DNA of 64,000 bases, taken from the NCBI RefSeq assembly GCF_058153355.1, contig NZ_CM177019.1; one strand, 5' to 3'. The notes beneath the pieces are model-generated. The model worked only from the letters and a program-made list of their open reading frames with translations, did no database searches and had not been told where the DNA came from. The first letter of the stretch is position 1. Every line of letters begins with the position of its first letter. A program made the position numbers and the translations under genes. Below, in pieces: positions 56,399-57,613 of the stretch.

Positions 56399-57613
56399 AT
56401 GAAATTTGAACGCCATCATGAAATATTGAAACGACTCAGTAAATTCGGTTCTGTAAAAGTATCCGATCTGTCCAATAGCCTCAATGTAACGAAAGAAACT
56501 ATTCGTTCAGATCTTAATGAACTTGCCAGGCTTGGCTATCTGACTCGATGTCATGGCGGTGCTTTTATCGTCCTAGACTCGCTTGATACTATTGCGAAAA
56601 ATGAAATCGCTTATGCGCTTGAAAATTATGATACAGCCCAGGGAATAAAAAAAGGCCACTCAACTATGAAAAGTCAAGTATGCGTTATTGGTTCGTTTAA
56701 TGTTGATATCATCAGTTATTTGCCGAGGCTTCCCACTATCGGAGAATCGCTTCTGGCAAGTAATTTTATATTTTCACCGGGGGGAAAAGGCTGTAACCAG
56801 GCGCTGGCAGCAAGCTTTGCCGATACTGATGTTTATTTCATAACAAAAGTAGGTACAGATCACTTTAGTGATTATGCGATCAACTTTATGAATTCGTCTA
56901 AGATTTATAAAAGTATAATTTATCAAACGAAAGAAACGCAAACCGGAACTGCCACGATCCTTGTTAATGAAGGTACTGGCGATAATGTTATTGCGATCTA
57001 TCCCGGTGCCAACATGACAATGTCGTCCGATGAAATAACTATTCAGAAAGAAGCGATTATTAATTCTGATGTCATACTTCTGCAGCTCGAAACAAATTAT
57101 ACCGCTCTGCAACAAGCGATCACATTGGCGCAAAAAAACAGTATCCCGGTCACTATTAACCCGGCACCCTATAATGATATCGTCAACGAACTTATTCAGG
57201 ATGTTGATTATATCACCCCCAATGAAACAGAAGCTGGTTTACTGTCCGGCATAGACGTACACGATCTTGAATCAGCTAAACGAGCTGCAGAAGCTATCCA
57301 CAATAAAGGGGTAAAAAACACGGTTATCACGCTCGGTAGCAAGGGCTCGCTCGCATTTGATGGCAAAAAATTCATTCATTCGCCAGCGTTTCCAGCGGTC
57401 GTTAAAAATACGGCAGGAGCCGGGGATGCGTTTAACGGCTCTCTGGCATCAGGACTTGCGAAAGGAAAATCACTGGAATCAGCACTGTGTTATGCCAGCG
57501 CCTTTGCATCCCTAGCGGTGGAGACAAGCAATGCTTCCGACATGCCTGAACATGAATCTGTGATACATCGAATTCAGAGTATACATTATCAGCAAACTAT
57601 TTTTACGCATTAA
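56399..57613 (+). CDS. fusion protein: DeoR-type HTH domain plus PfkB/ribokinase-family carbohydrate kinase
   Basis: 404-aa ORF; residues 1-60 DeoR HTH (SVKVSDLSNSLNVTKETIRSDLNELARLGYL); remainder PfkB kinase with both signatures (GGKGCNQALAA; GAGDAFNGSLASGL); AT-rich. Confidence 0.7.
   Translation: MKFERHHEILKRLSKFGSVKVSDLSNSLNVTKETIRSDLNELARLGYLTRCHGGAFIVLDSLDTIAKNEIAYALENYDTAQGIKKGHSTMKSQVCVIGSFNVDIISYLPRLPTIGESLLASNFIFSPGGKGCNQALAASFADTDVYFITKVGTDHFSDYAINFMNSSKIYKSIIYQTKETQTGTATILVNEGTGDNVIAIYPGANMTMSSDEITIQKEAIINSDVILLQLETNYTALQQAITLAQKNSIPVTINPAPYNDIVNELIQDVDYITPNETEAGLLSGIDVHDLESAKRAAEAIHNKGVKNTVITLGSKGSLAFDGKKFIHSPAFPAVVKNTAGAGDAFNGSLASGLAKGKSLESALCYASAFASLAVETSNASDMPEHESVIHRIQSIHYQQTIFTH

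Follow-up and report, generated by a model that had tools for sequence, protein, structure and literature searches.

A stretch of 64,000 nucleotides from NCBI RefSeq assembly GCF_058153355.1 (contig NZ_CM177019.1), hereafter the window, carries at 56399-57613 on the plus strand an open reading frame (ORF) of 404 codons in which a DeoR-type winged helix-turn-helix (HTH) is joined to a ribokinase-like kinase of the PfkB family. By alignment this ORF is the E. coli orthologue of RikA (STM3547) of Salmonella enterica. Our best reading is that two isoforms are made from one mRNA, because an internal start codon, M90, is conserved and a product of ~35 kDa has been found in Salmonella; the main alternative is proteolysis in a disordered linker. 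On balance we lean towards a composite model, built on sequence comparisons, in which the long isoform would bind boxes upstream of its own operon and regulate that operon through sugar sensing by the kinase domain, and the short isoform would be the bulk enzyme.

The 404 codons lie in one frame with neither a stop codon nor a frameshift. Pfam profiles matched HTH_DeoR (PF08220) at residues 5-56 (56411..56566, +; E 2.6e-15; score 56.4 bits, cut-off 21) and PfkB (PF00294) at residues 92-382 (56672..57544, +; E 6.2e-64), with a linker of ~35 residues between the HTH and the kinase domain. The initial annotation of this DNA had described a single polypeptide that fuses these two domains. The single frame and the two profiles confirm this for the ORF; for the gene product it is only partly right, as there are probably two products and the ~35 kDa species of Salmonella lacks the HTH. 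The further suggestion that a kinase replaces the usual DeoR sensor domain was borne out: no Pfam match to the DeoRC sensor/oligomerisation domain (PF00455) was obtained in the 404-residue protein, whose residues 92-382 belong to PfkB. Lacking DeoRC, the HTH-kinase is not a canonical member of the DeoR family. The best NCBIfam model was ribokinase TIGR02152 (281.1 bits, below its cut-off of 299.65), the ribokinase equivalog NF008353 scored 251 bits (cut-off 341), and the AgaR model matched the N-terminus. The protein is a ribokinase-like paralogue and not RbsK itself.

The domain annotation and structure prediction that had been proposed as a check were both run and agreed. An AlphaFold2 (AF2) model built on 67 homologues (mean predicted local distance difference test score, pLDDT, 86.5) showed a winged HTH (residues 1-56), a helix (64-80) and a kinase domain predicted with confidence; the stretch 76-89 was predicted to be disordered, with pLDDT below 50. 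The best Foldseek match to this model was E. coli ribokinase 1rk2 (template modelling score, TM, 0.89), and ribokinases matched at TM 0.89-0.93. No chain spanning both the HTH and the kinase domain was found by Foldseek in the PDB. A sequence search against solved structures matched the kinase part alone, with E. coli RbsK 1gqt as the best match (E 3.7e-52).

The Salmonella orthologue was described in June 2026 by McCormick, Jabbar and Escalante-Semerena in Mol Microbiol (PMC13432705). The window protein is 80% identical to STM3547 over 100% coverage, M90 and D343 align, and the kinase half is already characterised in Salmonella. There, chromosomal rikA by itself sustains growth on ribose (PMC13432705). 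The purified enzyme phosphorylates D-ribose in an ATP-dependent manner as a ribose 5-kinase, is ~40-fold less active on deoxyribose and ~100-fold less active on xylose and xylulose, and has a kcat/Km ~ten-fold below that of RbsK (PMC13432705). The true substrate of RikA may be another furanose, for which ribose stands in. Full-length Salmonella RikA carrying a maltose-binding protein (MBP) tag was catalytically active after purification (PMC13432705). A construct with 278 bp of native upstream DNA yielded only a ~35 kDa C-terminally tagged protein, a size that fits a start at M90, and this was the sole species detected in Salmonella grown on ribose (PMC13432705). RikA90-404 fully complements growth on ribose (PMC13432705). 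The authors remarked on the DeoR domain at residues 2-57 and stated that the protein 'appears to begin at M90', while leaving a long isoform possible (PMC13432705). A literature search for earlier work on DeoR-HTH/PfkB fusions returned only this paper. A Klebsiella 'DeoR/ribokinase' pathogenicity locus (PMC6020474) was set aside, as it is a different locus with separate genes. The window gene is thus an orthologue of the kind described in 2026, with an architecture that is published and widespread.

The internal start codon of the window gene lies at 56666..56668 (+). Of 24 loci, 22 have ATG as the corresponding codon; Acerihabitans has a GTG one codon later. Position 90 of the 67-sequence alignment is M in 55 sequences and V in nine (82% M; 96% with the V/GTG clade), within a linker whose columns 76-89 are each no more than 39% conserved. 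In the one Providencia locus read, the V is encoded by GTG and is preceded by AAGGA with a 7-nt spacer. In the window, a purine run, AAAAAAAGG (56647..56655, +), forms a weak sequence resembling a Shine-Dalgarno (SD) site 10 nt ahead of the internal ATG, and AGG, AAGG or AAGGA is present 7-12 nt upstream of the internal start in almost all orthologues. These SD-like nucleotides persist despite differences in the residues that they encode, which are K-G, R-G, K-D (Dickeya and Providencia) or N-R (Shewanella gelidimarina). The internal SD ranked within the top 34% of the in-frame positions of its own gene in every one of 22 loci (median top 11%), a ranking that carries no formal probability as the loci are related. 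A simple scan of 56200-56720 for sigma-70 promoters and terminators, which is weak evidence either way, found nothing, including no internal promoter before M90.

It could instead be that only the full-length HTH-kinase is translated and that the ~35 kDa species is a fragment cut from it in the flexible linker, in the cell or during purification. The predicted disorder of residues 76-89 would suit such a cut. The SD of M1, GTGAGGTGA (56387..56395, +), has a predicted anti-SD duplex of -9.2 kcal/mol, and the corresponding values are -7 to -11 kcal/mol in most enterobacterial orthologues; in both E. coli and Salmonella it is much stronger than the SD of M90. The published band was sized by sodium dodecyl sulphate-polyacrylamide gel electrophoresis and identified by tryptic mass spectrometry, with its N-terminus unmapped (PMC13432705). 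Against this stand the conservation of M90 in the midst of variable linker columns, the retention of SD-like nucleotides through changes of amino acid, with a textbook AAGGA-N7-GTG in Providencia, and the use of protease inhibitors in the published work, which gave a single clean band (PMC13432705). We therefore regard proteolysis as the sole source of the short species as unlikely, and retain two isoforms from one mRNA as the better account.

The DNA upstream of the gene carries an element that follows the fusion. Two tandem 10-bp boxes, TTTTGCTTTT TTTTGCTTTT, form an exact direct repeat at 56306..56325 (+), which places them between about -80 and -61 in the predicted promoter, and constitute a candidate operator. 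They are followed by a CRP-like site, TATGGTGATTATCACA (56337..56352, +), with 8/10 matches to TGTGA-N6-TCACA, and by a predicted -10 hexamer, TAACGT (56374..56379, +), which implies a transcription start near 56386. The CRP-like site would accordingly be centred at -41.5, the geometry of a class II CRP promoter. No promoter with a -35 hexamer was found here by the simple sigma-70 scan, as expected because an activator-dependent promoter is proposed. The initial annotation had suggested looking for an operator-like palindrome in 56209-56398. Tandem direct repeats beside a CRP-like palindrome were found in its place, and 56209-56285 of that interval proved to be the end of an IS110-family element and not native promoter DNA. 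Two palindromes were considered as operators and rejected. The 11-bp palindrome GTGATTATCAC is not conserved in that form in Salmonella or Klebsiella and is better explained as the right part of the CRP-like site; an 18-nt, 78% palindrome at 56350-56379, which overlaps it, is not conserved either.

The orthologous loci fall into subfamily A, at least 57% identical to the window protein and carrying a GATase1/DMT/PTE cassette, and subfamily B, 45-48% identical to it. Both share one upstream architecture: boxes of the form TTTTGYTT-nn-TTYYGNTT, ~11 nt, a CRP-like site, usually 21 nt, and TAnnnT. A two-part position weight matrix (PWM) was trained on subfamily B only (~46-48% identical), and 1.33 million positions from unfused ribokinase loci served as the control. 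In five of five subfamily A loci (the 64-kb window, Salmonella, Klebsiella, Budvicia and Proteus) the single best match on either strand lay at -91 to -97 from the ATG, the same distance in each. Scores were 22-30 in subfamily A (22.3 in the window) against a control maximum of 17.8, and a scan with the boxes alone again gave 56306-56325 as a unique match. A search with nhmmer, using a 46-column upstream profile, recovered only a duplicate Rahnella locus, as the method is too insensitive for a short T-rich motif; the PWM was used instead. Of 22 orthologous loci, 19 have a CRP-like site with at least 8/10 matches in the corresponding place, a score that only 5.3% of random 150-nt windows reach. 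The TAnnnT hexamer, read by eye, follows it by 20-22 nt (usually 21) in most of the 22 loci.

The box region varies among genera. Arrays of four to six phased TTnTGTTT boxes occur in Proteus penneri (locus L011, 5863-5925), Providencia (L090, 4870-4925) and Vibrio salinus (L021, ~5840-5930), which suggests cooperative or oligomeric binding. In four Shewanella loci (L024, L026, L029 and L030), ~75-110 nt before the ATG, AAACGAACC-N-GGTTCGTTT takes the place of the boxes as an inverted repeat. This repeat keeps the CGTTT half-site and the same 11-nt distance from the CRP-like site. Rahnella subfamily B loci keep the boxes, the CRP-like site and the -10 hexamer despite unrelated downstream genes. 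The fused HTH is the obvious candidate reader of the boxes because the element precedes every orthologue and goes with the fusion gene irrespective of the genes downstream.

The boxes could have another origin. At class II CRP promoters the C-terminal domain of the RNA polymerase alpha subunit (alpha-CTD) sits upstream of CRP. The T-tracts of the window lie in 10-bp phase at -61 to -80, the position that alpha-CTD would occupy there, so the boxes might be UP-element-like contacts of alpha-CTD, or intrinsically curved DNA, in a conserved CRP-dependent promoter, with the HTH acting elsewhere or not on DNA. We consider this improbable. It is the positions other than T that are conserved, the fifth of each box being G and subfamily B having TTCCGTTT; CGTTT is retained in Shewanella as an inverted repeat; some genera have four to six copies; and the element is absent from the control ribokinase loci and strictly co-occurs with the fusion gene. 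An operator read by the fused HTH agrees better with these observations.

The HTH itself is under purifying selection. Pairwise Nei-Gojobori estimates of nonsynonymous (dN) and synonymous (dS) divergence were made for codons 1-60 in pairs with unsaturated dS, and dN/dS was 0.04-0.28 in every such pair. The dN of the HTH approximates that of the kinase domain (0.139 vs 0.118, E. coli vs Salmonella). Eleven HTH residues (R5, V21, V30, E33, T34, R36, D38, L39, R50, G53 and G54), some of them in the VTKETIRxDL recognition region and in RCHGG, do not vary among the 67 homologues, down to 45% identity. In 24 loci, which range from Enterobacterales to Aeromonas, Vibrio and Shewanella, the HTH frame is uninterrupted. 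Outside the fusion family, residues 1-89 are closest to the HTHs of ordinary ~255-residue DeoR regulators (~50% identity). A search of the same residues against 1.84 billion cluster representatives returned chiefly fragments of the same gene and next DeoR regulators, with no new architecture to follow. Four proteins of ~630 residues (P0133, P0157, P0176 and P0214; 621-635 residues) that this search also matched have a related DeoR-type HTH at ~75-145 and show two matched stretches.

Purifying selection on the HTH and the strong SD of M1 together indicate that the long form must be made. The published conclusion of a start at M90 is at odds with how strongly purifying selection acts on the HTH. 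From these comparisons the M1-initiated HTH would be translated, and initiation at M90 alone is difficult to maintain as a complete account. In four Shewanella loci (L024, L026, L029 and L030) no SD was found ahead of the assigned M1. Folding of the mRNA 5' end (-13 to +90, eight orthologues) gave no conserved structure masking the M1 ribosome-binding site (RBS); thus the missing long isoform is not explained by RBS masking. That M90 is the true start, and the 89 codons upstream either a leader annotated in error or what remains of an old fusion, leaving a third ribokinase with no role in DNA binding, fits the ~35 kDa product obtained from the native RBS and the full complementation by RikA90-404 in Salmonella (PMC13432705), the alignment of M90 with the starts of RbsK and DeoK and the conservation of the internal ATG, but is very unlikely, as a remnant would hardly have retained its open frame, the eleven invariant HTH residues and such dN/dS values over more than 20 genera, the M1 SD is the stronger one, Proteus penneri has no internal start and so could make the long form only, and the family-specific boxes would be left without a reader.

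The proposed scheme is as follows. Transcription of the operon would depend on CRP at a class II promoter whose CRP-like site is centred at -41.5, and the one mRNA would give two proteins, a 404-residue HTH-kinase from M1 and a 315-residue kinase alone from M90. The long isoform would dimerise through the ribokinase lid (beta-clasp), like RbsK, and the two HTHs of the dimer would occupy the phased boxes next to CRP and so set the transcription of their own operon. Repression or anti-activation is the most likely outcome, by analogy with most DeoR-type proteins. Sugar and ATP would close the lid, and the kinase bodies with their tethered HTHs would then re-orient, so that DNA is released or its contact changed; the kinase active site would thereby serve as the effector site. 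The short isoform would add catalytic capacity without adding repressor. A regulatory role for the fused HTH, already raised in the initial annotation, gains indirect support from the selection on the HTH, the family-specific element and the lack of any other regulator in the cassette: no separate regulator gene was found in either cassette type (E. coli, Salmonella, Klebsiella and Providencia; the Rahnella locus). A more elaborate version, which we put forward only tentatively and think doubtful, would have a scarce HTH-kinase as sugar-sensing autoregulator and an abundant kinase-only enzyme, with short/long heterodimers, joined at the ribokinase lid interface, that carry one HTH and cannot span the boxes, so that enzyme output would feed back on repression.

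Several observations weigh against the favoured scheme. The internal SD is weak in E. coli (-3.2 kcal/mol, ranking only within the top 20% of in-frame positions), and Proteus penneri lacks an internal start codon altogether. The ~35 kDa species, its N-terminus unmapped, could have arisen by proteolysis in the disordered linker. The sole expression experiment, in Salmonella, saw no full-length protein; the long form must therefore be rare, unstable or condition-specific. The boxes are T-rich and lie where alpha-CTD binds at class II CRP promoters, and could be UP-like DNA. The AF2 model is uninformative on the placement of the HTH relative to the kinase domain, and it is guesswork which effector acts and whether the protein would be a repressor or an activator. 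Finally, with an insertion sequence (IS) 20 bp upstream and two broken downstream genes, the system is perhaps irrelevant to this strain.

What is chiefly at stake is whether a widespread family is a true enzyme-regulator with the kinase active site as its sensor, and secondly whether bacteria use a conserved internal start to obtain differing amounts of regulator and enzyme from one gene. If the more elaborate version with heterodimers is true, it would be a new solution to the stoichiometry conflict of enzyme-regulator fusions, and the protein the first functional HTH-PfkB regulator. Resolving the conflict between the M90 start and the selection on the HTH would correct the annotation in more than one third of complete E. 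coli genomes and in most of Salmonella.

The catalytic residues of the kinase are all present. Residues were numbered by alignment to E. coli RbsK and their invariance was judged in the 67 homologues. N101, D103, G128-G131, N133, E231, N275, E278 and G340-D343 are invariant. N101 and D103 correspond to RbsK N14 and D16; G128, G129, K130 and N133 to RbsK G41, G42, K43 and N46; and E231 to RbsK E143. N275 and E278 belong to the NxxE motif, and G340-A341-G342-D343 (GAGD) forms the anion hole and the catalytic base (RbsK D255). The D343 codon lies at 57425..57427 (+), and in Salmonella RikA the D343A change abolished activity (PMC13432705). That the kinase domain might be a dead sensor was considered and rejected, the catalytic residues being intact and the Salmonella orthologue active. 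By analogy with that orthologue, the E. coli copy is probably an ATP-dependent D-ribose kinase. The window ORF differs from its cluster representative at three residues of the kinase, G192, T252 and S348. The initial annotation had credited the protein with both PfkB signatures, which stands at the level of profile and residues and less well at that of patterns: Salmonella RikA has three mismatches to PROSITE pattern 1 (PS00583) and none to pattern 2 (PS00584) (PMC13432705), and in the window protein S348, an A in most homologues including that of Salmonella, falls inside pattern 2.

The window kinase resembles RbsK (1rkd, 1rk2) in fold (TM 0.89), in sequence (~36% identity) and in the identity of its ribose-binding, NxxE and GAGD residues. 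RbsK, in contrast, has no DNA-binding domain and is controlled by a separate LacI-type repressor, RbsR. The DeoR-family repressors DeoR, GlpR, AgaR and FruR share an N-terminal HTH_DeoR ~50% identical to that of the window protein; they carry a DeoRC sugar-phosphate-binding/oligomerisation domain where the window protein has a catalytic kinase. DeoR-type regulators often adjoin PfkB kinase genes, a plausible origin for the fusion. We know of no description of a conserved internal start giving an enzyme-only isoform in the BirA, NadR, RbkR or PutA systems. In these trigger enzymes (BirA, NadR, archaeal RbkR (PMC5397151) and PutA, with the ROK family also) an HTH is fused to an enzyme domain, as here, and the ligand site doubles as the effector site, which by analogy would hold for the window protein too. 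RbkR, a fusion of kinase and DNA-binding domain, controls the pathway of its own substrate (PMC5397151). Both the enzyme fold and the HTH class of these proteins differ from those of the window protein. Enzyme and DNA-binding domains occur in its one polypeptide, and both are under purifying selection. Functionally the window protein would thus belong with the enzyme-regulator fusions BirA, NadR and RbkR, with DNA binding predicted from its sequence. E. coli K-12 YeiI (PRK09954) is likewise a PfkB sugar kinase with an N-terminal extension, of ~50 residues, which we take to be a different type of HTH. The window protein matched PRK09954 weakly (43 bits against a cut-off of 561) and at positions 50-340 of 362 only. 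YeiI is a member of the pseudouridine-kinase branch with an uncharacterised function (PMC9061257).

The architecture had been called uncommon in the initial annotation, which holds only in relative terms. Of 5426 complete E. coli genomes, 2032 have this ORF annotated, and more than 20 gammaproteobacterial genera possess the fusion. RefSeq labels the ORF 'PfkB family carbohydrate kinase' or 'DeoR family transcriptional regulator'; the product annotated at the matching locus (99.9% identity at the DNA level) is WP_000667430.1. All but a few of the best 120 database matches carry both Pfam domains, and the exceptions are N-terminally truncated or partial. A genome scan yielded 20 fusion loci, with the HTH in frame with the kinase in every one. 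Genera with fusion loci include Budvicia, Proteus, Pectobacterium, Rahnella, Dickeya, Brenneria and Tatumella, and further Citrobacter, Enterobacter, Phytobacter, Aeromonas, Vibrio and Shewanella.

The window gene is the first of a mobile four-gene sugar-related cassette that encodes the kinase, a GATase1-like protein, a DMT transporter and a PTE-family hydrolase. In Salmonella, rikA is followed by the same GATase1_like, DMT_YdcZ transporter and PTE-family genes (STM3547-STM3550 in LT2), and the subfamily A cassette occupies differing chromosomal sites in E. coli, Salmonella, Klebsiella and Providencia. In the Rahnella subfamily B locus (L008, L009; 8001-12238) the genes downstream of the HTH-kinase instead encode a DHDPS-type aldolase, a DUF386 protein and an MFS transporter. 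The second gene of the window cassette, the STM3548 orthologue, lies at 57627..58385 (+) and matches GATase1_like (PF07090, E 1e-111) and PDB 2gk3 (STM3548, E 6.9e-145). The third, at 58442..59407 (+), is a DMT_YdcZ transporter pseudogene with an internal stop. The fourth, at 59410..61780 (+), is the orthologue of Pmi1525/STM3550 and matches Pfam PTE (E 7.8e-45) and PDB 3rhg/4qsf (Pmi1525 of Proteus mirabilis, E 1.2e-174). Pmi1525 is cited in the literature as a promiscuous metal-dependent esterase. Close orthologues of both companion enzymes have structural-genomics crystal structures (2gk3 and 3rhg), with no physiological role assigned.

The E. coli and Salmonella copies share the DeoR HTH, M90, D343, the downstream genes, the boxes, the CRP-like site and the -10 hexamer. 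The E. coli copy differs in its chromosomal site, a decayed island next to the cob genes, in the stop in its transporter gene and, in the window, in the presence of ISs 20 bp ahead of the promoter element and within the PTE gene. The upstream IS, the IS110-family element at 54768..56285 (-; transposase ORF 55033-56208), was delimited by comparison with E. coli strain 300709, from which it is absent; it is present in FDAARGOS_944, annotated there as ISSso6-like. It ends 20 bp upstream of box 1 and lies between an IS66 remnant and the rikA promoter. The DMT_YdcZ gene is split by its stop into ORFs at 58442-59050 and 59144-59407. RefSeq flags an 'internal stop' in the same gene of FDAARGOS_944, and in Salmonella and Klebsiella the gene is intact (321-323 residues). 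Because another E. coli strain shares the transporter stop, the E. coli cassette in general may be transport-deficient. An IS3-family element of 1331 bp, likely IS2, was located at 59473..60803 (-, two overlapping transposase ORFs) by BLAST against the FDAARGOS_944 locus, where the PTE-family gene is uninterrupted; in the window it sits ~63 nt (~codon 21) into that gene. The cassette is thus decaying through IS insertions, and the rikA-like ORF and its promoter element are intact. Beyond the cassette lie a gamma-glutamyltransferase remnant (61924-62148) and an ISL3-family transposase gene (62432-63811). An intact ggt flanks the cassette in Salmonella (locus L003, 12093-13835), and part of a Salmonella-type neighbourhood was therefore carried into the E. 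coli island.

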